Positions 1,779-43,260 of a DNA stretch of 43,260 nt are shown one piece after another (position 1 is the first letter of the stretch; each line of letters opens with the position of its first letter). The DNA is from a virus. Its lineage: Duplodnaviria; Caudoviricetes. The position numbers and the translations under genes are program-made. The notes under the pieces were generated by a model. The model searched no databases. It saw nothing but the letters and a program-made list of their open reading frames with translations, and was not told where the DNA came from. Location of the stretch: positions 1 through 43,260 of the IMG/VR virus record IMGVR_UViG_3300017747_001658; one strand, written 5' to 3'.

Positions 1779-3203
1779 TTAGTATCGGAAGGCGCCACTC
1801 GTAATTACCCCCCGCATGAAATCGGAAGGATTGCCGCCTCCGTCTGAACGAGGGTTAAACTGGGCGCCTTGTTGTTTAAGTCTTGCTATCACTTGAGGGC
1901 GAAGCTGGTTAATAACTTCTTCCAAAGGAAGGCGGGACTGCGGGCTGTGAGGGTCTTTTTTAAGCTCCTTTGCTTCATTCAGGACGATATTTTCGATTTC
2001 TTCTGCTGTAACAGCATAGGTGTTAGCGCCTTTACCTCCCATAAGAATCTTAGCTTGTTCTACACGGGAGCGCTCATCTATCAGTTTAAGCTCTTTCTGT
2101 CCTGCAAACTTCCTATCAGCGGCTGCTCTATCAGCAATCTGCTTCGTGAGCATACCCACTGCGGCGCGCTTATCTGCATGCTGTTCTTTCTCGCCAGCCA
2201 GCTGAAGGGCCATAATCTGATCTTGAAGAGCGGATTCTTCTTTAGCGCCTTGCTGGTACCCAGCGGCTCCAGCCATTAACCCCGCGCCCACTGCTTGGCC
2301 TAGATGCGGAGATTGAGTCGCAAGGGCGGCGCCGAGTCCTTGAGTAAGGGCGTTGTACCATTTATCTTTTCCTGCCTCAGCTACCCGATTTTCGTATTTG
2401 CTCTGAAGTTCAGGAGACAGCGCAAAAGAAGGGCCATACAGACTCATCATGTCCTGTACACCCTCTTCCAAACTACGGTCTTGCGCGCGTTCTGCCTGTA
2501 TGCGTTCAGCGGAGCTACCGGGGCGCGGCGGGTTCACAATACCTGTATCGCGTTTGGGTTGTTTGGGGGCGGATAGCTTAGCTGGAAACAACCTTTCAGC
2601 TTGGTCGGGAGATAAGGCCGAGTCGGGAACGTCTTTGTCGTAATCTTCTTCAGCTTGGCGCCGCGCTTCTTCAGGATCAACAGGCGCTTCCTCTTCCTCC
2701 TCTTCTTCGTAGGGATACTCTTCTGTCCCTAGTTCTGGCAGTTCTTCGGCAGCATAAGGGTTTGTAGTAGCCCCGCCGTTAAAGAAGTGTCGAACAGCCC
2801 CACCCTGTGCTAGCGCGACTAAACCGCCTGTAGCGGCGCCTTGAGGAGGCGCGGCATTTTCGGGAGCAGCGCCAATGCCTGCATTCCGCATGGGGTCTTG
2901 TTGAGAGGCATCCTGCATAGCGTACTGATTAGCCCCTATGTCGGCTATACCGCCTTGCATGGGGTTCATGCTCTGCTGCAACTGCGCTATCTTCTGCTGA
3001 AAGACCGTTTGCGAGGGCGCCTGCTGTTGCTGCGAGCTCGCCTGTTGCTGATACTGTGTAGCCATTGCCAATGCCGTTGCTTCTGGGCTATCCGGGTTTT
3101 GCTGAACTGACTGTGCCAGTGACTGCAGCTGGTCTGGAGGCGCCAACTTGAGCATGTCGAATAAGCTCGTTACTTTCTGTCCGTAGTTCTCGTTCGTAAA
3201 CAT
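1779..3203 (-). CDS. Putative internal virion/DNA ejection protein
   Basis: 474 aa, Gln/Ala-rich helical, acidic tract, Gly/Ala hydrophobic segment (GLGAALAT...GAGLMAGAAG); located in the ejection-protein cluster. Confidence 0.6.
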   Translation of the reverse strand: MFTNENYGQKVTSLFDMLKLAPPDQLQSLAQSVQQNPDSPEATALAMATQYQQQASSQQQQAPSQTVFQQKIAQLQQSMNPMQGGIADIGANQYAMQDASQQDPMRNAGIGAAPENAAPPQGAATGGLVALAQGGAVRHFFNGGATTNPYAAEELPELGTEEYPYEEEEEEEAPVDPEEARRQAEEDYDKDVPDSALSPDQAERLFPAKLSAPKQPKRDTGIVNPPRPGSSAERIQAERAQDRSLEEGVQDMMSLYGPSFALSPELQSKYENRVAEAGKDKWYNALTQGLGAALATQSPHLGQAVGAGLMAGAAGYQQGAKEESALQDQIMALQLAGEKEQHADKRAAVGMLTKQIADRAAADRKFAGQKELKLIDERSRVEQAKILMGGKGANTYAVTAEEIENIVLNEAKELKKDPHSPQSRLPLEEVINQLRPQVIARLKQQGAQFNPRSDGGGNPSDFMRGVITSGAFRY

Positions 3204-3208
3204 AGCTA

Positions 3209-6200
3209 TTATCTCCTCGCCGCCGCAATGCCACGTCTATCCGGTGTTTTATGCCTAGCCGCCAGCCATGCTTCATACGCCCGTGTATGCTGTACTGACC
3301 CTCCCCGTGCAAACGGAGACGCGGGGGTGTTGGTGCCCGATGCTGTATTGACACCTCCGGTTGCAGCTTGAGCATTGATCGCATTGACCACAGGCTGGTT
3401 GATGGTGTTCGGCATATTGACCCAGTTACCAGCGTTAGCCGACATAGCGTCAGCATAGCTCTGGCCTAAGTTCTGCTGTGCTTCTACGCTTTTGCCTTGT
3501 GCCCCTAGATTTGCTAATTCAGCACCGCTTTTAGCAGAACCGACGCCCGCCAGCCCCTGTGCAACACCTGCCATTCCTTGCGCTGCGCCGATTGCCTGTT
3601 GATTTGCAGTGAGCCCCGCTTGTTGATTAGCCTGATCTGCGGTGAGTTTCGTCTGCTGGTTAGCCAGTTCAATCTGCTGCCGGTTCTCAGCATTGAAAGA
3701 CCGCGCCGCGTTTTCGGACACTTGATTGGCCTGTTCAGCGGTAAGCTGCCCACCATAAAAGGTCTTAGCAGCTTCAAGGTCTTGTTGAACCTTGAGTTGG
3801 CGCTGCTGATTGAGGGCCTCTTGGTCAGCTTTAGCCTTAGTTAAGGCAGCTTGTTGATTGGCGGTTTGCGCTGTTAAGGCGTTCTCCGCATATTGTGCGG
3901 AAGCTGTGTTCTTTGCTGTGGCTTCAAATTGAGCAGCGGTATTCTTTACCGCTTGGTCTGCTAGGTTAATCTGCTGTTGATTCTCAGCGTTGAAAGTATT
4001 TGCCGCGTTCTTGGCAACCTGATTGGCCTGTTCAGCGGTAAGCTTCCCACCGTATTTAGCTTTTTCGGCTTCAAGGGCTTGCTGTACTTTGGTTTCCCGT
4101 TGCTGGTTGATAGCGTCTTGGTTCGCCTTGGCCGTTGCAACATCGGCTTGCAGCTGTGCAGAACCTTTAGCAATGTCTGCGCTTTGGTTGGCTTTTTGCG
4201 CTTCCTGTGCAGACGTAGCGGTATATTGTTTGGCTTCGTTCTGTGCCCTTTGATTAGCCTCAGATTCTGACAGCCCCATGCTCATGTATTTGTCTTTGAG
4301 CGTGTTGACCATCTGCGCGTTAGCTTTAGCTACATCAGTAGAGAGCCCTTGTTCAGAAGTAAACTGGCTCATACCTGCCTGATAGGCTTCTTGCTGTCCT
4401 TTAGCCTGAATGTCGGCTAATTGCTGGGCATAGTTCTTTTGCAGTTGGCTTTCCATGATAGCCTGCCGTGAGCCACCAAATGCCCCCGCGCCTGCGGCAC
4501 CAGCTTGAAGTTCTTGCAGCTGTTTCTGATAGTCTATGCCCGCTTCGCGTTTCTGTGCATCAACCACCTCTTGCATGTACGGCGACATGTACTGACTGGC
4601 AACACCGGCATCAGTCCAAGATTTAGGCGCGGCTGCGGTGGCAGCTTCTTCACGTTTTGTCTTGGCAATGTCAGAAGCATCGTACTTTTGACCTGCGACA
4701 TCCCGTACATTGCCGAATTTCTCGCCTTTCTGCTGCGCGGCTTCGTAATCAGAGACCTTAATGTCTTCCGGCGCTTTCATTTCAGCGGCGGTGTACTGTG
4801 TACCTTTTCCAACTGTAGCTGCGTTATAGCCTGTGACGTCTGCTTTCTTTGCAGTTACGTCCCTAGCAGGTGCCATCTTTTCCGCGTTATACGAGGTAAC
4901 GGCAAACTTGTCCGGGGCTTCCATTTTAGCGCCAGTGTACTCTTGGGCTTTGGCCGCAGTCGCCTGCACTTCTTCAGGCTTGTACTTGATTAACTCCTTC
5001 AAGGCATCAGCCGCAACCCCATACTGTTTCGACGCGGCGTCGAACTCTGCGGGGGTCTTCAGGTTGCGTACCTTTTCCTGAAGCGCAACAAAATCAGGCA
5101 GTGTCGATTTGCCCTTATCATCAACAAAGGCAATCTTACGCATAGTGTCCAGAAGGCTCATCTCCTGATCGCCTTTGCCGGTAGCGGCTCCCTCGACGTT
5201 GGCTGCTGTTGCGGCTTCAGCTTCTTTAGCGGCTGTAGCTTTGGTCTCTTTAACTACTGCGGGTGCTTTAGGGTACTCAGTTTTGATAGTTTCAAAGGGA
5301 GGCTGCCCAACAGGTTCAGGATATGTAGACGACTTAGTCGCTTTAGATATAGCAGCTTGAAGGTCTTTATTGCCAACTGCCGCAATACCGGAGTCAACCA
5401 AAGGCGATACGTTACGGCCCGTACGGGCTTCTGCGGCGTTCACTTTGTTAACGAGAGCTTCAGGCGGAGTTTGGCCTTTCGCTACCATGTTGTTGTATTT
5501 TGTAGCCGCAGCTAGTTCATTCGGCGTAAGGTCTTTGACTTTAGGCTTCGCAGGAGTAGTGTCTGTAGCTTTAGGCTTATTGTCAGTCTTAACCGTAGTA
5601 GTCTTAGGCTGGGTCGTCGTAGTCTTAGGCTTGGTCGTAGTTGTGGCCGTAGTAGTCTTAGGCTTGGCCGTAGTTGTGGCCGTAGTAGTCTTAGGCTTGA
5701 TCGTAGTTGTGGCCGTAGCAGTCTTAGGCTGGGCCGGGGTCGTAGTGGTCTTAGGCTTGGCCGGGGTCGTAGTGGTCTTAGGCTTGGCCGTGGTCGTAGT
5801 AGTCTTAGGCTTGGCCGTGGTCGTAGTAGTCTTAGGCTTGGCCGTGGTCGTAGTAGTCTTAGGCTTGGCCGTGGTCGTAGCGGTCTTAGGCGCGGTTTGC
5901 CCCCCTACAGTTCTAACTGTTACAGGGTTATTCGTTTTAGGCTTGCCGCCTTTGGCGTACCCTGTAAGCGCCATGAGGCCGCCTTCGGCAGCGCCTTGTG
6001 GGTTGAATCGTGAAAGCCCGCCTAACTGCTCGCGCGTTATGCCAGAGTCATTTAGGGTGTTGTACTGTTGCGTAAGCTTATTGGCGTTCCGCAGCATGCT
6101 AGTGATCGGGCCGGGGTTATTCTTCGTACCCAGCATGAGCGCTTGGTACGTTTTGTTTTGCCACGGAGACTGATTTACAGTAGTTTCAGAAGTTGTATGG

Positions 6201-19187: not shown

Positions 19188-19978
19188 TAGGTTTGCCCAT
19201 CGTTCTTGATAAGGATCATACCGAAATACGAGGATAATGTATTGGTACCGCTGGATGTGATTGCCCTAGCTTCTATGTCAGATTTCTCTGGTATAGCAAT
19301 AGGATACGGAAAGTCATAATTGACCTGCCCTGTGGCAAACACTGTTACGGCTGATGTTACGAATGGCGAACCTTGGTTACTGACTACCAATCGACCCGTA
19401 ACGTACCCAGCGCCATTATCCTGTCCTGACAACCCGCCTACTCTCAAATATGCTGTGTAGCCTGCGGGAACGGTGTAAACTCCTGACGCTTCTTTATTAA
19501 AGCCGGGAGGTACCAATTCGTGCACAACAGCCGGTACACCTGTGGTTACAGTGCCAGTGCCAACATAAAGCGTGCCGACGTTGCCGCCGTTTACGCCCTT
19601 ATCAACAACCGTGATCCCTATTACGCGCAGGTAGGTCTTAGTCGTAGCTACTGCCGTCTGGCCCGCCAGCGTAATTCGTTCTGAAATAGGGTTGTAGTTT
19701 TGATCCAAGCCTTCAATCAGAACAATGTGTGCGCCTGTACCAGAAGGTGACGTGTCGTTAGCAGAACTCGATGACACAGTCATCGTTGCAGCAGTAGTCA
19801 GGTACACGCGGGCGGCGGCTAAGTTCCAGATGGGAATCAAGGTACCGTCCACTACTGTAGAGTACCCAAACTTGTAAATGGCAGAGTGCATCGTAATCTG
19901 CCCACGAGCCACCTGAAGTTCAAATGGCTCGTACTTGCCAAAGCGCGAGATTGACGAAGGCACACTGCCGATAGCCAT
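19187..19978 (-). CDS. Virion structural protein (beta-rich)
   Basis: 263 aa; FELQVARGQI...YTVPAGYTAY...IPEKSDIE. Confidence 0.65.
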   Translation of the reverse strand: MAIGSVPSSISRFGKYEPFELQVARGQITMHSAIYKFGYSTVVDGTLIPIWNLAAARVYLTTAATMTVSSSSANDTSPSGTGAHIVLIEGLDQNYNPISERITLAGQTAVATTKTYLRVIGITVVDKGVNGGNVGTLYVGTGTVTTGVPAVVHELVPPGFNKEASGVYTVPAGYTAYLRVGGLSGQDNGAGYVTGRLVVSNQGSPFVTSAVTVFATGQVNYDFPYPIAIPEKSDIEARAITSSGTNTLSSYFGMILIKNDGQT

Positions 19979-20964
19979 TACCGCATGCTCCCTTTACCCC
20001 AGCCTTTTTGGGCTAGGCCAACACCGCGCGGCTTACCTTTACAACCGCCTACCTTCGCCATACCGCCCTTTTTCATCAATTGGCTGGCACCAGCATTGTT
20101 TATACGCGGAGGTGGAGGTGCCGGAGGCTTAGCCATAGGCGCAGGAGCAGGCGCCGGGGGTTTAACCATAGGAGCCGGGGGCTTAACCATAGGAGCCGGG
20201 GGCTTAACCATAGGAGCCGGGGGCTTAACCATAGGCGCAGGTGCCGGTTTAAGGGCCGCGAGACCCGCAGGGGCGGGGGCGGGGGCCGGAGGCTTAGTTG
20301 CCGGAGCCGCAGGCTTAGTTGCTGGCGTCGCAGTCTTAGGCGCAGGTTTAGGAGCCGCAGGCTTAGTTGCTGGCGCCGCAGCCTTAGGCGCAGGTTTAGG
20401 AGCCGCAGGCTTAGTTGCTGGCGCCGCAGTCTTAGGCGCAGGTTTAGGAGCCGCAGGCTTAGTTGCTGGCGTCGCAGTCTTAGGCGCAGGTTTAGGAGCC
20501 GCAGGCTTAGTTGCTGGCCCTTTAGAAGATGACATCAAACCAGCGCCTTTAGGCCCAGTGCCTTTAGCAGGCATCGGTGACGGCCTCTTAGGCCCAGTTC
20601 CCTTAGCAGGCGTCGGTGATGCTCCCATAGGCTTCGTGCCCTTTGCAGGAGTCGGTGACGGCCCTTTAGGCTTCGTGCCTTTAGCAGGCATCGGTGATGC
20701 TCCCATAGGCTTCGTGCCCTTTGCAGGAGTCGGTGACGGCCCTTTAGGCTTCGTGCCTTTAGCAGGCATTGGCGACGGCCCCATAGGCTTAGTTACTTTA
20801 GTCTTGGTTGCCTTGGTAGGAGAAGTCTGCTTAACAGCCGGCTTAGGCGCCGCAGGCTTAACAGCCGGTTTAGTAGGAGAAGTCTGCTTAACAGATGGTT
20901 TAGGCGCCGCAGGCTTAGTTGCTTTAGTGGAGGTTTTTGATAAAAGGCGGGTGCTTCTAGGCAT
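19978..20964 (-). CDS. Pro/Ala/Lys-rich repeat protein (histone H1/AlgP-like composition)
   Basis: 328 aa made of KPAAPK, PSPMPAKGTK and APMVKPP repeats; coupled to the downstream gene. Confidence 0.7.
   Translation of the reverse strand: MPRSTRLLSKTSTKATKPAAPKPSVKQTSPTKPAVKPAAPKPAVKQTSPTKATKTKVTKPMGPSPMPAKGTKPKGPSPTPAKGTKPMGASPMPAKGTKPKGPSPTPAKGTKPMGASPTPAKGTGPKRPSPMPAKGTGPKGAGLMSSSKGPATKPAAPKPAPKTATPATKPAAPKPAPKTAAPATKPAAPKPAPKAAAPATKPAAPKPAPKTATPATKPAAPATKPPAPAPAPAGLAALKPAPAPMVKPPAPMVKPPAPMVKPPAPMVKPPAPAPAPMAKPPAPPPPRINNAGASQLMKKGGMAKVGGCKGKPRGVGLAQKGWGKGSMR
20155..20925. repeat. Nested coding tandem repeats (21-, 45- and 39-bp units)
   Basis: About 4x 21 bp (20160-20235), 4x 45 bp (20300-20520) and about 6x 39 bp (20540-20790). 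Confidence 0.85.
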
Positions 20965-20997
20965 GGCTGTCTCTTAATTAAGGTGTTTAACTGTACG

Positions 20998-29246: not shown

Positions 29247-29639
29247 TTATTGCAGTATTTCTAGCAGCTTCTCAAGATAATGGTGGGCTTTCTGTATGTC
29301 TTCCTTGTACGGCCCCTTTTTGCCCGCTCGTGCTAGATATTTAAGGCTGTTACCAAGCAAGTACCCTCTGAACTCTTCAGGTGAAAGCCACGCCTCCATA
29401 GCCACCCAAGGCTGAATTGGCATCTTTTCGTAATGGTCTCCCGCGATTTCCCGTTTGTTGGCTTTTTGGATTGGTGGTACTTGTGGCGGCTGTAAGCCGT
29501 ACAGCTTTTCTAGGTCGCGTAGGTTCTTCGCGGTGGTATCACGTATCACCTGTGCGTGCGCCTCATCGGGGGACTTCGCTTCATCTCTTTCTTTGAAGAT
29601 CGCTTGAAACTCTTCTAGTGTCATTTTGTGTTTACTCAT
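29247..29639 (-). CDS. DUF3310 (SaV-like) domain protein
   Basis: C-terminal AGDHYEKMPIQPW...GNSLKYLARAGKKG..EDIQKA.HYL. Confidence 0.8.
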   Translation of the reverse strand: MSKHKMTLEEFQAIFKERDEAKSPDEAHAQVIRDTTAKNLRDLEKLYGLQPPQVPPIQKANKREIAGDHYEKMPIQPWVAMEAWLSPEEFRGYLLGNSLKYLARAGKKGPYKEDIQKAHHYLEKLLEILQ

Positions 29640-32059
29640 TAGTAGTATGCCGCGCGTCTTGATTTAAGTATCCAGTTGTCTTCGTCGTAGTCTTTGTCTT
29701 TAGCTGTACCGATGAACCCTCCTGAACGGAATCTGGCTAGCGCCAGAGAAACACAGTCTGTGTAGTCATCGTTCTTGCCCGCAGGGAACGCCGCCACCTC
29801 GTCAATCAACTCTTCCGCCCAGCGCTTGCGTGGCGCCCACACCTTACCTGACGCAAAAATGTCAGCGATAGCGTTGAGCCGTGTGATCTTGTCGTTGCCC
29901 TTGCTAGGTGTGAACTCTTGCGCGGGGATGCCCATACGCCGTAATTCGTAGATCAGTGGCGCCCCACTGGCCTTCTTTTCGATTATTACGCTGTCTGGCT
30001 CCCATTCTTCGTACAGCTCCAGCGTTTTAGCCTTCAGCTCGGGAAACTCAAGTCTGTCTCTCCAAGCGTTCAGCAGAATGATATTTGGCTGGTCACCATC
30101 CTCGTCGTTGTCCCAAACGCCAAAAATAACAGCGGCGCTGTAGTCAGCGGAGGTCTTCTTCTCGAAGGCCGTATCCATCGCCATGATAATGAACTCCACC
30201 TTGGGTGGGTCTTCGTAGGGCCATTCTTGCCACCACTCGCGCTTGATTATAGCGCTTTGTTCTGACGTTGGCTGCTGCTGGTACTGCGCCATCCACTTCC
30301 CGTTAGGGAGCACTTTACGGATGGCATCAAGCTCTTCGTGCTTCCAAAACTCAGGCCACAGGGGCTTACCCGATGGAAGAATAGCCGGAAACTCTACAAC
30401 CTCCCACTTATCGCCGCCTCTGGTGGATGCTGAATCCAACACCTGCCCCGTAAGATCACGGAGACTCCATCTTGTGTTGTGGCTAACAATACCATTGGCT
30501 ATGAAATTCTCGGTACGGTCAATCTCAACGTCAAAAACTTCTTCCTCCCCATCAGGAGTTATCGAGATTATTAAGTCCACTGTAAAGTCTGAGATACGCC
30601 GCAGCTCGTTCAAGTACCTCTGGTGTCTTACCATAGCCAACGGCGAGATTGCAGTCGTTGCAGAGGAGACCCCGAACTTCTCCAGTGTCGTGGCAATGGT
30701 CAATACACAGTTTGCCGCCCCAATGTGCCCTGACATTGCTTCCGGGCAGTTCTCCACATACCGCGCATTTTCCGTCTTGTTTTTCGAACATCGCTGCATA
30801 CTCTTCAAGCGTAATCCCGTATCGGATTTTAAGCCTTGTAGCCCTTCGTGACTCTGGGGTGCCCCTGCCGTACCCGTCTTGCCATCTTTTTGCGTTGTAG
30901 TGCGCGATACACAAGCCTTTAGATACCGCAGCAGCTTGGCAATCAATTTCGGAGCAACCTCGCCCTTTGTGTTTTCCGTGGTATCCGATGGGATGATAGG
31001 GTGCGTTTGGGTTTTTGCGGTGGTAGCTGTCTTTTGCTTGGCATGGGCTGCATTTTCCGGGTTTGGTTTTTGCTCTTGCCAGCCTGTTGCACCCTTCAAC
31101 GATACAAGTTGATCCCCCGGTCTCAAGCTCTTTAGTCTTGTCCATTCCAATACCCCTTCGTTCATTATGAGAAACGGATGCCTCTCATTTGCTCGGAGTA
31201 TTTTACCAGATTCTGTTTGTATTTTGTATATGGAATCAACACCACTTGACCGCCAGTTGTTAACCTTGCTAGTCGTTAATTTGCCATTGTCAAAAGTGGC
31301 TACACTATCGCCGGGGCGTATGTCCCGCAGGGGTTTTTCTGTCCCATCCGCCATCAAAACAAGTGTGCCACCTACCATACACATAACGATGATTATAGCC
31401 CCTCCCGGTTGCAGACGCTGACGTGGGCCGGATGTGTACCACTCAAACACCTTGTCATAGATAGCGGGGTTGAACTGAGCAAGCACCGCCTCGTTTTCAG
31501 AATGGGGGTCATCAATGATGAGCAGGTCAGCGCCTCGACCTGTAACTGTACCGCCGACGCCTGATGCAAAGTATTCGCCGTTGAAGTTGGTATTCCACCG
31601 CCCTGCCGCCTTTGAGTCGGTGCGTAGCTCAACGTCTGGGAATATGGCCTTGTACACGGCGTCATCTACCAAGTTACGCACTTTTCTACCGAAGCCCTCG
31701 GCCAGCTCTGCGGTGTTTGAAATTTGCATCACTTTCTTCTTGGGGAATTTACCCAGCATCCAGCTGGGCAGAAGATAGGATGCAAACTCAGATTTGGTAT
31801 GACGAGGCCCAAGATTGATGATGACCCGTTTCTTCTCGCCACGGGCCACGGCTTCAAAAATCTTGGCTATACGCCTGTGATGTGAACCGGAGATGAAATC
31901 CGGCCAGACTGCGTTTACATAGGCCAGAAAGTCTTCCTGAGCTAAGGCGCGGGTTTTCCGTATGTTCAGCTCTTTCACAAGCTCCAGCAGCTTGGCTTTT
32001 TCTTTGGGAGGAGCGTTGTCTATGGCGGTCTGTAACGCCTCCATATCTAGGTCTGTCAT
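29639..32059 (-). CDS. terL: Terminase large subunit, intein-containing (about 504 aa after splicing)
   Basis: Walker A-like GPRHTKSE, Walker B LLIIDDPH, IIIVM|TRW coupling motif split by the intein, nuclease residues MDTA and NDDYTD. Confidence 0.93.
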   Translation of the reverse strand: MTDLDMEALQTAIDNAPPKEKAKLLELVKELNIRKTRALAQEDFLAYVNAVWPDFISGSHHRRIAKIFEAVARGEKKRVIINLGPRHTKSEFASYLLPSWMLGKFPKKKVMQISNTAELAEGFGRKVRNLVDDAVYKAIFPDVELRTDSKAAGRWNTNFNGEYFASGVGGTVTGRGADLLIIDDPHSENEAVLAQFNPAIYDKVFEWYTSGPRQRLQPGGAIIIVMCMVGGTLVLMADGTEKPLRDIRPGDSVATFDNGKLTTSKVNNWRSSGVDSIYKIQTESGKILRANERHPFLIMNEGVLEWTRLKSLRPGDQLVSLKGATGWQEQKPNPENAAHAKQKTATTAKTQTHPIIPSDTTENTKGEVAPKLIAKLLRYLKACVSRTTTQKDGKTGTAGAPQSHEGLQGLKSDTGLRLKSMQRCSKNKTENARYVENCPEAMSGHIGAANCVLTIATTLEKFGVSSATTAISPLAMVRHQRYLNELRRISDFTVDLIISITPDGEEEVFDVEIDRTENFIANGIVSHNTRWSLRDLTGQVLDSASTRGGDKWEVVEFPAILPSGKPLWPEFWKHEELDAIRKVLPNGKWMAQYQQQPTSEQSAIIKREWWQEWPYEDPPKVEFIIMAMDTAFEKKTSADYSAAVIFGVWDNDEDGDQPNIILLNAWRDRLEFPELKAKTLELYEEWEPDSVIIEKKASGAPLIYELRRMGIPAQEFTPSKGNDKITRLNAIADIFASGKVWAPRKRWAEELIDEVAAFPAGKNDDYTDCVSLALARFRSGGFIGTAKDKDYDEDNWILKSRRAAYY
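30476..31381 (-). mobile_element. Intein (302 aa, TerL residues 227-528)
   Basis: Block A CMVGGTLVLMADG, block B ANERHPFL, block F VFDVEIDRTENFIANG, terminal SHN followed by +1 Thr. Confidence 0.93.
30552..31145 (-). CDS. Endonuclease VII-type HNH homing endonuclease, nested out of frame inside the intein
   Basis: 197 aa; RYGITLEEY..MFEKQDGKCAVC...LCIDHCHDTGEVRGLLCNDCNLAVG; N-terminal CxxxxC repeats; GAAGGGG 7 nt before the ATG. Confidence 0.88.
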   Translation of the reverse strand: MDKTKELETGGSTCIVEGCNRLARAKTKPGKCSPCQAKDSYHRKNPNAPYHPIGYHGKHKGRGCSEIDCQAAAVSKGLCIAHYNAKRWQDGYGRGTPESRRATRLKIRYGITLEEYAAMFEKQDGKCAVCGELPGSNVRAHWGGKLCIDHCHDTGEVRGLLCNDCNLAVGYGKTPEVLERAAAYLRLYSGLNNLDNS

Positions 32060-32571
32060 ACGCGGGTAGCTGTACCTTCAATGGTTTTCCCAGCGTAGCG
32101 CGCAATCGCGTCCCGTAGGGCCTTTTCGAGCTCTTCTGTAGATTTATGGACGATGGATATTTCCTGCTTGTCCACCATGAGCCCAACTATGCTGGTTTTT
32201 GCCAAGGCGTCCAAGGCGGGCTTAGCTATCTTAGGATCGGGGTCAAGAGTGAGCTCAAAGTATTTGCTCATGATGTAGGACTGCCATTGGTCTTGGGTGC
32301 CCGGAACCACAAAGTCATAGGCGGCAAGGTGCCGCTGTAAAGCTCTCTCAGCAGCGAGAGAGGGGGGAGGAGTGGAGCAAGTGGGGTTTTGTCCTTTTTC
32401 GACTATCCACGCCCTGTCGTAGGTAGATAGGGGGGTTTCTGCGGTGGTAGGTGGGTATCCGTCCTTGAAAGATTGCCGCGCAAACACTTCTTCCGCGCTA
32501 GCGGAATAGTTCAGAAACTGTATTGGGAAGTGGAGTTCTTCCAGAGCAGTCGGTATCTCGACGGTATCCAT
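32056..32571 (-). CDS. Putative terminase small subunit
   Basis: 171 aa, ATGA overlap with TerL; ALDALAK..IVGLMVDKQEI C-terminal pattern. Confidence 0.6.
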   Translation of the reverse strand: MDTVEIPTALEELHFPIQFLNYSASAEEVFARQSFKDGYPPTTAETPLSTYDRAWIVEKGQNPTCSTPPPSLAAERALQRHLAAYDFVVPGTQDQWQSYIMSKYFELTLDPDPKIAKPALDALAKTSIVGLMVDKQEISIVHKSTEELEKALRDAIARYAGKTIEGTATRV

Positions 32572-39222: not shown

Positions 39223-40296
39223 ATGAAAGTAAGCAAGAACAACGACCTGACCCTGAAAGAAATCGCTGACCTTATCCTCAGCGTAGGTGAGACTGTAACC
39301 GTGCTTGTCGAGGGCCACATCGGTACCGGCAAGAGCACCCTGCTCCAGATCATCGCAGCTATGAGGCCGGATGCGTATCCGTGCTACTTCGACTGCACAA
39401 CCGCAGATGTCGGTGACTTAGCAGGGCCCAAGTATTCCACGGTCAATGGCGTGGATGTGCTGTCGTTCGTGCCGAATGAGAACCTTGGCATGCACCTCGA
39501 CAAGCCTGTCATCTTGATGTTCGACGAGTTCGCAAAGGGCCCACTGCCCGTACAGCGGGCGTCACGCCGCATCATGTTGGAGCGCAAGAACGGCATGCAC
39601 GCTCTGCCCAAGGGTTCTATTGTGTTCGCTACGACCAACCTTGGCCTTGAGGGTGTGGGTGACATCTTACCTGCACATGCTCGTAACGCTATCTGTGTGG
39701 TCAAGCTTGGCAAGGGCAAGCCCATGACATGGGTAGAGGACTACGCAATACCTAACAACTTGCACCCTGTAGTGATCGGCACGGCGCTGGAGTATCCCAC
39801 CATGTTCGAGAGCTTCGAGGACGTGGAAGACCCGAACTCTAATCCGTTCATCTTCCATCCCAAGCAGGCACGGGCTGCGTTCGTCACCTTGCGCTCACTG
39901 CGTATGGCGTCTGACATTATGTATGCGACAGAGCACATGACGTCTCATGTCCGTACCCATGCCCTTGCGGGTGTGATTGGCGAAGCAGCAGCGGCTGTAA
40001 TGATGACGCTCAGCGGTCTCAACGACGACCTGCCAGCGTGGGAGCGGGTGATTGCTGACCCTTACACATGCCCTGTGCCCAAGTCAGGCGTTGCCTGCTG
40101 CATGCTGGTGACCAAGGCGGCGATGCGTGTAGACCGCAGCAGCATTGATGCGTGGATGGAGTACCTCATACGTCTGCCCAAGGAGACGCAAGCGTTGTTT
40201 GCTCGCACCATAGTGCGCAGTTCCAACAGCGGTGTGGCTACGACCTGCGAGGCGTTCACTAACTTTGCGAAGAACAGCCTGTACCTTTTCACTTAA
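39223..40296 (+). CDS. AAA+ ATPase (MoxR/CbbQ-like)
   Basis: Walker A GHIGTGKS, Walker B ILMFDEF, sensor-1 ATTN, later VTLRSL. Confidence 0.85.
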   Translation: MKVSKNNDLTLKEIADLILSVGETVTVLVEGHIGTGKSTLLQIIAAMRPDAYPCYFDCTTADVGDLAGPKYSTVNGVDVLSFVPNENLGMHLDKPVILMFDEFAKGPLPVQRASRRIMLERKNGMHALPKGSIVFATTNLGLEGVGDILPAHARNAICVVKLGKGKPMTWVEDYAIPNNLHPVVIGTALEYPTMFESFEDVEDPNSNPFIFHPKQARAAFVTLRSLRMASDIMYATEHMTSHVRTHALAGVIGEAAAAVMMTLSGLNDDLPAWERVIADPYTCPVPKSGVACCMLVTKAAMRVDRSSIDAWMEYLIRLPKETQALFARTIVRSSNSGVATTCEAFTNFAKNSLYLFT

Positions 40297-40359: not shown

Positions 40360-40689
40360 ATGGCAAAAGCAACTGCACCACAGATCATGGCTAAGATTGA
40401 CGCTTCATCCACAGTGCTCGTACCACTGGAGATAGCCCACCAGATTCAAGCGCTACTGGCACAGCACGCCGTTAAGTACAACTGCATATACAGGGGCCGT
40501 GATTCAAGCGTGACCTATATAACAGACTATGAAATCCCATCTGTATCGGTCGTACCCAAGGATGCCCCTATCTATGACGCTATGGGTTTGACCCGAGAGC
40601 AGGTAGACGCATGGTACATGTCCGTGAGAGACGGCGACGGCCCCACAGTGATCGAGCCCAAACAATTCACCGCTATTGCAGGAGATTGA
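40360..40689 (+). CDS. Hypothetical protein
   Basis: 109 aa, GGAG RBS. Confidence 0.7.
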   Translation: MAKATAPQIMAKIDASSTVLVPLEIAHQIQALLAQHAVKYNCIYRGRDSSVTYITDYEIPSVSVVPKDAPIYDAMGLTREQVDAWYMSVRDGDGPTVIEPKQFTAIAGD

Positions 40690-40690
40690 T

Positions 40691-41830
40691 ATGTTGACAG
40701 TAGAACAACGCATAGAACGTGCACACGTTCGCATCATGAAGCACGATGCAACTCTAGGGTATGCGTCACTCATTATGATCGGTGACACCACGGTAGATGA
40801 TGTGACGCCCACTGCCTACACCAACGGCAGGGACAAGGTATACGGACGCGCTTTCGTCGAGGGTCTTAACGAGCAGGAGCTTGTAGGTCTTATCCTGCAC
40901 GAGGCAGGGCATGTGATGTATCAGCACGGCTATCTGTGGAAGCACTTGTGGGCACAGGATGCACAGCGCGCCAATCAGGCGGCTGACCACGTTATCAACA
41001 TCGAGATCGCAGAGCTCGCTGCCAAGTACCCTGACTTCGTGGCGCTGCCAGCCGGTGGCCTGTTAGATATGCAGTATCGTGGCATGGATACGCAGGAGAT
41101 ATTCAACCGCTTGCCAGCAGGTGGTGGTGGCGGTGCCGGTGGCGGTGGTGGCGGGTTCGACGAGCACAAGTTCGACGAGCTCAGCGAGGCCGAGGCCGAG
41201 GCACTGACCAAGGAGGTAGAGACCGCCGTACGTGAAGGCATGTATCGTATAGGCAAGAGCGGCGGCACTGCATCACGCGCCTTTACAGAGCTGACAGCGC
41301 CCAAGGTTAACTGGCGCGAAGAGCTGATCATGTTTGCCACCGAGGCCACCAAGGGTAGCGAAGATGCGTCATGGCGTAGGCTCAACCGCCGCTGGCTCAG
41401 TGCAGGTGTATTGATGCCTGCTTCTGAGGGTGTTACTGTAGCGCGTCTCAGTGTGGTGCTGGATGTGTCGGGCTCTGTCGATGACTTACTGGTCTCAACA
41501 TTCATGTCCGAGGTGGTTGGCATCTGTCACATGGTGCGCCCGCTGTTGGTAGATGTAATCTGCTGTGATCACGAAGTGCGCTCCCATGATGTGTATGACG
41601 CATCGTCGTACGCCGACTTGGAAAAGAAGCGCAATCTAGGCGGAGGGGGTGGCACAAATATGCCAGCTGCATTAGACTATATCGACAAGCAAGGGCTGAA
41701 CCCTAACGTGGTTCTGGTTCTGACTGATGGCTACACTCCGTACCCAACGGAGTTGAACAGACCCACTCTGTGGGGTATTACAACCAAGAAGGTCACCGCG
41801 CCTGTGGGAGTGACAATACATGTCCGATAA
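40691..41830 (+). CDS. Metallopeptidase + vWA domain protein (DUF2201-like)
   Basis: TAYTNG, HEAGH (HExxH), NQAADHVIN; MIDAS DVSGS, GGGGT, LTDGY. Confidence 0.85.
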   Translation: MLTVEQRIERAHVRIMKHDATLGYASLIMIGDTTVDDVTPTAYTNGRDKVYGRAFVEGLNEQELVGLILHEAGHVMYQHGYLWKHLWAQDAQRANQAADHVINIEIAELAAKYPDFVALPAGGLLDMQYRGMDTQEIFNRLPAGGGGGAGGGGGGFDEHKFDELSEAEAEALTKEVETAVREGMYRIGKSGGTASRAFTELTAPKVNWREELIMFATEATKGSEDASWRRLNRRWLSAGVLMPASEGVTVARLSVVLDVSGSVDDLLVSTFMSEVVGICHMVRPLLVDVICCDHEVRSHDVYDASSYADLEKKRNLGGGGGTNMPAALDYIDKQGLNPNVVLVLTDGYTPYPTELNRPTLWGITTKKVTAPVGVTIHVR

Positions 41831-42202: not shown

Positions 42203-42686
42203 CCCAGAAGAGGTCAATGTGCCCGAACAAGCCGCCGAGCGTAGGCTGGCCGTAGAGGTAATGAACCGCGCGATAGAGGACGCGCGCTGCGCCGATGCGT
42301 ATGTGACCCTGTCCAACAGAAGGAGGAGTGCATCCAGCGCCATGACGCCCAAGGAAAGGGATAGGTACAAGCGGGGCTTCTGGAATGATGACTCGGTGCT
42401 GGCTGTCGATGCCATACACTTTCTGATGACGGATAGGTGCCACCACTACCTTAAGCTGCTGGACATAGACCCAAAGGTATTCGTGGAGCAGCTGATCCAG
42501 ACACAACACACGGAATGTGTCACACCTGTGGAGGACTTCGTAGATGATGGCGAGGTGTCACCAACAGGGACGCGCCGCACGGTTAAGATAGCGGCAGAGA
42601 ACAGAAAGCGGCGCATGTTCCGCAACAACTATAAGTTTTATCAAGAGCGTTTGCGCGCAGTATCAGGAGGTAGGCATGCACGTTGA
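42180..42686 (+). CDS. Hypothetical protein
   Basis: 168 aa, GAGGTG RBS; ERRLAVEVMNRAIEDA. Confidence 0.7.
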   Translation: MSRTIMIDPEEVNVPEQAAERRLAVEVMNRAIEDARCADAYVTLSNRRRSASSAMTPKERDRYKRGFWNDDSVLAVDAIHFLMTDRCHHYLKLLDIDPKVFVEQLIQTQHTECVTPVEDFVDDGEVSPTGTRRTVKIAAENRKRRMFRNNYKFYQERLRAVSGGRHAR

Positions 42687-43260
42687 GTTACTGGACTACA
42701 TGGGCAGCGATCTAGCTGTAGTAAATGCGGCGCGAGTCAGCTTTGATAAAGAATCAGAGTACGAATCAGCGATTGTTCTATCAGAAAAGGATGAGAAGTT
42801 AATCCACTACCTAGCGAAGCACAAACACTGGACACCGTTCGCACACACAAGCATCAAGTTCAGGGTGACGATGCCTATTTATGTGGCGCGTCAGTTGGCT
42901 AAGCATCAAGTTGGGGGCGTGGTAAATGAAGTGTCTCGACGGTACGTCAGTACAGCGCCAGTGCTGGATGTGCCAAAGAAGTGGCGTAAATCCGCAGAGA
43001 ATGTGAAGCAAGGCTCAAGCGATGAGCTAGTAAACGTAGATCAAGAGCATATAAATCAACTAATGGATCAGTGTTTGGCTACATACGACTACTTGATTGA
43101 AAGTGGTGTATGTCCCGAACAAGCACGAGCAGTGCTACCTCTGTGCTGTGAAACTACGTGGATATGGACAGGTAGCCTTTCGTTTTTTGCGCGTGTATGT
43201 AGGCTAAGGCTCGACCCTCACGCACAGAAGGAAACGAGGGACGTAGCTGAAAAAATTAGC
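42676..43260 (+). CDS. thyX: Flavin-dependent thymidylate synthase ThyX, truncated at window end
   Basis: Hand-translated MHVELLDYMGSDLAVVNAARVSF...HWTPFAH...VARQLAKHQVGGVVNEVSRRY...PEQARAVLP...HAQKE; AGGAGG RBS. Confidence 0.92.
   Translation, partial: MHVELLDYMGSDLAVVNAARVSFDKESEYESAIVLSEKDEKLIHYLAKHKHWTPFAHTSIKFRVTMPIYVARQLAKHQVGGVVNEVSRRYVSTAPVLDVPKKWRKSAENVKQGSSDELVNVDQEHINQLMDQCLATYDYLIESGVCPEQARAVLPLCCETTWIWTGSLSFFARVCRLRLDPHAQKETRDVAEKIS

Follow-up and report, generated by a model that had tools for sequence, protein, structure and literature searches.

How can an intein move between genes when no homing endonuclease can be recognized in its own reading frame? The question is raised by a terminase large subunit gene (terL) in the 43,260-nucleotide stretch of phage DNA analyzed here (the window), in which an intein interrupts the terminase ATPase and the same DNA, read in another frame, encodes a nuclease-like protein. 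Comparisons with related sequences lead us to consider it very probable that TerL harbors a class 1 intein whose likely excision restores the terminase, and that the overlapping frame-3 ORF specifies an intact endonuclease VII-type nuclease, likely translated as a free protein, which likely spreads the intein by homing into terL alleles that lack it.

Genomic setting

The window is a phage genome segment in which portal, major head, tail fibre and ThyX genes could be identified, the last of these (a Thy1 thymidylate synthase gene, 42676-43260, plus strand) being cut off by the window end. The 20 runs listed as containing this DNA are freshwater, lake or aquatic metagenomes; no RNA run is among them, which has no bearing on expression. 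An ATPase gene (39223-40296, plus strand; phrog_1297) lies near a gene for a DUF2201 metallopeptidase/VWA protein (40676-41830, plus strand); the latter bears the label "HNH endonuclease" in PHROG 1314, whereas Pfam identifies DUF2201_N and VWA. Antisense to each other and overlapping completely, two ORFs of 328 and 330 amino acids (19978-20964, minus strand, and 19985-20977, plus strand) have no Pfam match, and the minus-strand ORF has no PHROG match either.

A class 1 intein in the terminase large subunit

The terL gene (29639..32059, minus strand, as are all features of the locus described below) encodes a TerL precursor of 806 amino acids (PHROG 38, E 3.5e-93; Pfam Terminase_6C). An earlier note on this DNA had proposed a 302-amino-acid intein inserted between IIVM and TRW, and the coordinates, the splice residues and a Pfam Intein_splicing match above cutoff (E 5.6e-18) all bear this out. 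The intein (30476..31381) runs from Cys1 to His301-Asn302 and is followed by a +1 Thr, with VM/TRW as the insertion site; in TerL numbering it extends from Cys227 (codon at 31381) to His-Asn528 (ending at 30476). On one side lies an N-extein of residues 1-226 with the C-terminus AIIIVM (31382..32059), defined by translation and by comparison with an intein-free allele, L164, and on the other a C-extein that begins TRWSLR (29639..30475), defined by translation and Pfam. Insertion is in frame and precise, since alignment with empty alleles leaves an exact 906-nt gap, with a gap of 0 at the site in 69 of 80 relatives (the best 80 of 322 N-extein matches). The exteins are ~50% identical to the TerL proteins of pelagiphages HTVC023P/027P, the best intein-free TerL matches.

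The class 1 intein residues Cys1, His301, Asn302 and +1 Thr are invariant in 37 relatives. So are H68 and D284, as in a Hint splicing domain; we take them to be its block B histidine and block F aspartate. Columns that are invariant from C1 to V93 in 37 inteins, together with a peak of variation at codon position 3, mark out an N-terminal splicing region of intein residues 1 to ~93 (31105..31381), which includes His68 and Trp80. Invariant columns and codon-position variation similarly delimit a C-terminal splicing region of residues ~264-302 (30476..30592), which includes F283-D284 and H301-N302. The intein frame matches Hint-type families only, and no LAGLIDADG or HNH family of Pfam matches it at E<=0.1, in keeping with the earlier statement that its middle has neither motif. 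The same stretch had been described as rich in Thr, Ala and Lys; this holds for Thr (12.4% versus 4.2% in the exteins), but Ala (11 versus 10%) and Lys (9 versus 7.5%) are barely enriched. Single-sequence structure prediction of the intein gave a pLDDT of 40.7, too low to be informative.

A nested endonuclease VII-type ORF

The second coding sequence is an ORF of 197 amino acids (30552..31145) that starts 914 nt past the TerL start, an offset of 2 (914 mod 3) that places it in frame 3, or -1, relative to the intein. It matches Pfam Endonuclease_7 (PF02945) at E 2.1e-21, six PHROG endonuclease VII families, and T4 endonuclease VII (PDB 1e7d) at E 1.5e-4 with the CxxC, DHxH and CxxCN motifs aligned, and its relatives have dN/dS values of 0.12-0.15. 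The earlier view that the -1 frame holds a complete protein of this type is thereby upheld: profile searches of the two frames return Intein_splicing in one and Endonuclease_7 in the other. The motifs are C127AVC, D149HCH and RGLL-C162NDCN, and C127/C130, D149-H150, C162/C165 and N166 all align with T4 endonuclease VII; we assume that the two cysteine pairs bind zinc and that D149-H150 and N166 are catalytic. The CxxC...DHxH...CxxCN core is shared with T4 endonuclease VII and with another His-Me finger enzyme, Hpy99I (PDB 3fc3), although only ~60 residues align with these proteins. The predicted product begins MDKTK, and its N-terminal Cys-rich part has no sequence match in the PDB.

The ORF starts at intein codons 79/80 and stops near codon 277. 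Both ends lie within conserved blocks of the intein frame and inside the coding regions of the splicing domain, as had been pointed out. An antisense ORF of 202 amino acids (30243-30851) was dropped, having no Pfam match.

The same layout in relatives

In IMG/VR the intein had 194 matches and the nuclease 310, and the best 80 of each were used. From loci with an intein match 169 complete inteins were extracted, with 6 loci excluded for incomplete intein ends, and the 94 distinct inteins considered below comprise that of the window, 88 from IMG/VR and 5 from actinophages. Among the matches listed, every one of the 94 contains a frame-3 ORF (151-236 amino acids), so that the -1 frame is kept in homologues rather than routinely broken. 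The strict endonuclease VII pattern is present in 90 of these 94, and the other four differ at the RG position and retain DH and CxxCN. The intein frame is open in 93 of the 94 matches listed, and in none of them (0/94) is the nuclease in frame with the intein, as it is in the canonical bifunctional fusion.

In a collection of genomes the same frame and start were found at 13 of 15 loci, including assemblies of Bradyrhizobium, Mycolicibacterium, Oribacterium and Dysosmobacter; the remaining two (L257 and L260) missed the motif pattern. Two members of the metagenomic set stand apart. L057 has an intein of 1023 nt (117 nt longer) and a nuclease of 236 amino acids, with both frames open. L076, whose intein is 898 nt long, has the sole broken intein frame among the 94, caused by a late single-base shift that is either an error or the mark of a dead allele.

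Selection on the two frames

Removal of the 5 actinophages, L076 and one sequence with N from the 94 inteins left 87, which were reduced to 62 representatives at 95%. Among these 62, variation is greatest at third codon positions throughout, but the frame to which they belong depends on the region: the intein frame for intein residues 1-93 and 265-302, the nuclease frame for nuclease residues 14-186. Because the variable codon position changes frame there, the controlling frame can be said to switch at each end of the overlap.

Nei-Gojobori dN/dS in the overlap core was 0.15, 0.12 and 0.12 in the nuclease frame for 16, 11 and 31 disjoint pairs in three identity bands, and 1.11, 1.26 and 1.31 in the intein frame for the same bands and pairs; silent sites are near-saturated (pS 0.64). 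If only the nuclease protein were constrained, a mean of 2.6 intein-frame stops would be expected (~3.5 in the window, with P(0) ~0.01). None were seen in the 62 representatives, which had been pre-filtered for an open frame, and without this filter 93 of 94 are open. The nuclease frame is under purifying selection and the intein-frame core shows stop avoidance only. This is the pattern of selection that had been predicted, with ratios of 0.12-0.15 in the nuclease frame and of 1.1-1.3 in a stop-free intein-frame core.

A probable start site embedded in conserved intein codons

The ATG of the nested ORF (31143..31145) straddles two intein codons, taking its A from the end of Glu79 (GAA) and its TG from the beginning of Trp80 (TGG). 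The Shine-Dalgarno-like motif GAAGGGG that had been noticed before it is present at 31153..31159 with a spacing of 7 nt; in the intein frame it is spelled by Glu75-Gly76 plus the initial base of the Val77 codon. Among the matches listed, the frame-3 ORF starts at an identical position in all 94 distinct inteins (ATG in 85, GTG in 9), where the TG of the conserved intein Trp codon always joins the final base of the codon before it, and all 94 keep both the start codon and a purine-rich motif. Where the residue preceding Trp is Glu or Lys, a purine in the third position is unavoidable, and a start codon of some kind comes at no cost. The position is nonetheless kept even where that residue is Arg, Val or Thr, for which codons ending in a pyrimidine are also available.

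Codon usage around the site is skewed as well, with counts that are not independent across related inteins. The Glu before Trp80 is GAA in 49 cases and GAG in 2 (exteins use 43% GAA), and the Gly codon in the Shine-Dalgarno-like motif is GGA or GGG in 58 of 61 (35% in exteins). However, a control Glu (in NERH) is equally skewed in the opposite direction (GAG 44:2). Because of this control, and because shared ancestry inflates the counts, the skew supports but does not prove internal initiation. RNA folding around the start site was nothing unusual (z -0.82), and a promoter scan found 2 sites against 1.2 expected, neither of them upstream of the nested ATG within the intein. Given the conserved start site, the nuclease is likely made as a free protein from an internal start.

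Distribution and mobility

Among the best 80 of 322 N-extein matches, the 69 neighbors noted above are empty at the insertion site and 11 carry an intein. The closest extein among the matches listed is itself an empty allele, L164, with 97.4% nucleotide identity over 900 nt; the N-extein is 100% identical to that of L164 in amino acid sequence across the 193 residues searched. Conversely, among pairs of inteins that are >90% identical, the exteins are >10 points less identical in 44 of 68 pairs, which are not mutually independent; in one example the identities are 99.9% and 72.7%.

The first 6 nt of the C-extein (30470..30475) differ at 3 positions, all silent, from the empty allele that is otherwise near-identical, and are likely a co-conversion tract. 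At these six post-site bases the letters of L164 are those of a metagenomic contig (run X4, depth 26) that joins 30469 to 31382 and so represents an intein-free allele, with low-depth intein pieces alongside. In seven hand-picked pairs of filled and empty near-twins, mismatch is 0.162 at +1..+15 versus 0.01-0.07 in other bins, and position +3 differs in 6 of the 7. The signal is weak where the same intein sits in divergent exteins (mismatch 0.18 versus 0.25 at +1..+15 in 9 disjoint pairs). Metagenome assemblies may be chimeric around the shared 900-nt element, which could add noise to such comparisons. The flank pattern fits a short co-conversion tract or, alternatively, escape variants among the empty alleles. 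The locus thus presents hallmarks of homing: patchy distribution, a near-identical element in divergent hosts, and a flank signal as expected from co-conversion that is clear in the filled/empty pairs and weak in the same-intein pairs. Together, the per-frame selection and a distribution that fits homing support the idea, already put forward from the letters of this DNA, of a dual-coding selfish element.

Two further observations concern empty loci. In L232 and L233, terL is empty and the endonuclease VII ORF has a separate match at another place in the locus, which may be a free-standing relative beside terL. In L164, ~0.8 kb (2904-3730) separates the aligned blocks downstream of terL, versus ~0.3 kb in the window (29500-29201).

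Alternative readings

Two alternatives would deny the nuclease an existence of its own. One is that two compensating indels, introduced by sequencing or assembly, mask an ordinary in-frame nuclease intein. Such errors or mutations do occur, as the single late frameshift of L076 illustrates, but the offset is common to all 94 distinct inteins among the matches listed, cultured phages included, the intein frame is uninterrupted, and the nuclease ends at a stop codon of its own. In addition, four metagenome runs were compared over 29600-32300, none of which lists an indel. Run X1, which may be the source sample, spans the intein gap-free, and contigs of run X2, from a study different from that of the best-matching run, cover 29600-31264 and 31235-32298 with 0 gaps. 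We regard this artefact as refuted by the gap-free contigs of an independent study together with the shared offset, and assign it a negligible probability; the earlier observation that both frames stay open agrees with these contigs. The other is that a -1 ribosomal frameshift in the TerL frame yields a fusion of N-extein, N-intein and nuclease, with no internal initiation. In its favor, the window has 13 stop-free frame-3 codons leading up to the ATG, and one database protein, P0001, has the fused shape. This protein, however, derives from one contig and skips ~15 codons, and its end at the nuclease stop, with no C-terminal splicing domain, suggests either a dead allele or a misassembly. Several relatives (L003, L011, L017, L127 and L134) carry a frame-3 stop immediately before the start, the frame being open from codon 78, which makes frameshifting from upstream unlikely, and the retention of the start codon and purine-rich motif in all 94 matches listed likewise speaks against it. 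We therefore judge frameshifting highly improbable, and internal initiation is the reading we favor.

Two other alternatives accept a free nuclease and differ on what it is for or where it is heading. Domestication for a phage function, as a packaging cofactor or junction resolvase, with loss of homing, would be compatible with the purifying selection, which suits either role, and with the presence of an endonuclease VII family member in terL; phage HNH nucleases beside terL can also be packaging cofactors, a possibility also discussed in the accessible text of PMC4422536. Yet intein and nuclease ORF are absent from the site in 69 of the best 80 of 322 neighbors, the 97% twin among them, and near-identical inteins are found in divergent exteins, so we give this reading very little weight. 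The layout might instead be a transient intermediate toward an in-frame nuclease intein, as the earlier note had suggested and as is also put forward in the discussion of Gosselin et al. 2025 (bioRxiv), in the part accessible; two indels would suffice in principle. But none of the 94 distinct inteins among the matches listed is in frame, and the only fused protein found has no C-terminal splicing domain. Layout and start are common to aquatic phages, actinophages and sequences from bacterial assemblies, with near-saturated silent sites, and no complete in-frame fusion was present among 1885 longer-protein candidates, which is weak evidence. (An unrelated tandem endonuclease VII protein that surfaced in this search was set aside.) A transient intermediate is accordingly unlikely in our estimation, and the out-of-frame layout looks like a long-lived stable state.

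Relation to known systems

The earlier note left open how novel this architecture is, and novelty is unsupported because Gosselin et al. 2025 (bioRxiv) already describe it: the accessible text reports an "endonuclease VII-like HEN in frame 3" in TerL inteins and names four phages. In GenBank the top four phage matches of the nested ORF, filed under "terminase", are Angelicage, Affeca, Keitabear and Sedona (57-61% identity). Host gene, nuclease family, strand and frame are the same as in the accessible description of those inteins, and here too no nuclease is recognizable in the intein frame (Hint-type Pfam families only; core dN/dS 1.1-1.3). Angelicage shares the VM/TRW site, the frame and an ATG at the same Trp codon. 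In contrast to these actinophages, the window belongs to an aquatic lineage, with exteins ~50% identical to HTVC023P/027P TerL; its intein is longer (906 nt versus 762-801 in 4 of the 5 actinophages examined, AlanGrant having 900) and has an extra N-terminal Cys-rich module. The main text of Gosselin et al. 2025 makes no mention of "start codon", "ribosome", "synonymous" or "metagenom", and neither start-site conservation nor per-frame selection for such inteins was found in the literature searched, which for that preprint means the main text.

Several other systems offer partial parallels. Chandler gp6 (TerL6-f, mycobacteriophage clusters B3/B4) shares the C-motif insertion site and, according to the accessible text of Kelley et al. 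2016 (PMC5050341), spliced readily in a MIG reporter. We find that the Chandler intein contains a frame-3 endonuclease VII ORF with a GTG at the same Trp. That text has no mention of the nested ORF, and its endonuclease assays concern the LAGLIDADG inteins TerL1-b and TerL1-c, unlike the endonuclease VII type here. The accessible part of PMC4422536 (2015) describes an out-of-frame HNH gene inside a brucellaphage TerL intein, a similar arrangement with, to judge by description, a nuclease annotated as HNH and not endonuclease VII. The ShiLan domain of Arsenault et al. 2025 (PMC11855218), a hidden out-of-frame HNH in a phage methylase, is likewise a dual-coding homing insertion with its nuclease in another frame, but as described in the accessible text it has no splicing domain or detectable RBS, whereas the window has a full intein and a Shine-Dalgarno-like motif. 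The accessible text of PMC3029335 contains nothing on an out-of-frame intein layout. What our analysis adds is that the start always lies on the conserved Trp80 codon, that selection can be assigned per frame, and that a splicing relative, Chandler gp6, has the same layout.

A model for expression and homing

We envision a scenario in which TerL is translated through the intein frame, whose ~170-amino-acid middle is, on the evidence of sequence and selection, a passive stop-free linker. Splicing through Cys1, His-Asn and the +1 Thr would remove the intein, as has been found experimentally for the relative Chandler gp6. Ribosomes may also initiate internally at the Shine-Dalgarno-like motif and the ATG provided by the Glu-Gly and Glu-Trp codons of the intein, as their conservation suggests, producing a ~22-kDa nuclease. 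During co-infection this nuclease could cut or nick an intein-free terL near the VM/TRW codons, and repair off the intein-bearing genome would then copy the whole 906 nt together with a few flanking bases, steps to which the distribution and flank patterns point. The 97%-identical empty allele is a natural target, and a homing assay would therefore be straightforward.

We further speculate, on an idea that we think could go either way, that the nuclease arrived without translation signals: the conserved Glu-Gly and x-Trp80 codons of the intein would have supplied both its ribosome-binding site and its start codon, so that the Hint domain would be pre-wired to express whatever ORF lands in its linker in the -1 frame. 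On this view, capture out of frame would be no step toward in-frame fusion but a stable end state, widespread in aquatic phages, actinophages and prophages, in which control passes from one frame to the other at either end of the overlap.

With these findings the layout, recently described in a few clusters of actinophages, extends to a large family of aquatic phages (194 and 310 IMG/VR matches for intein and nuclease). Inteins of this kind can easily be mistaken for decayed or mini-inteins, and the extent of intein mobility is therefore probably underestimated.
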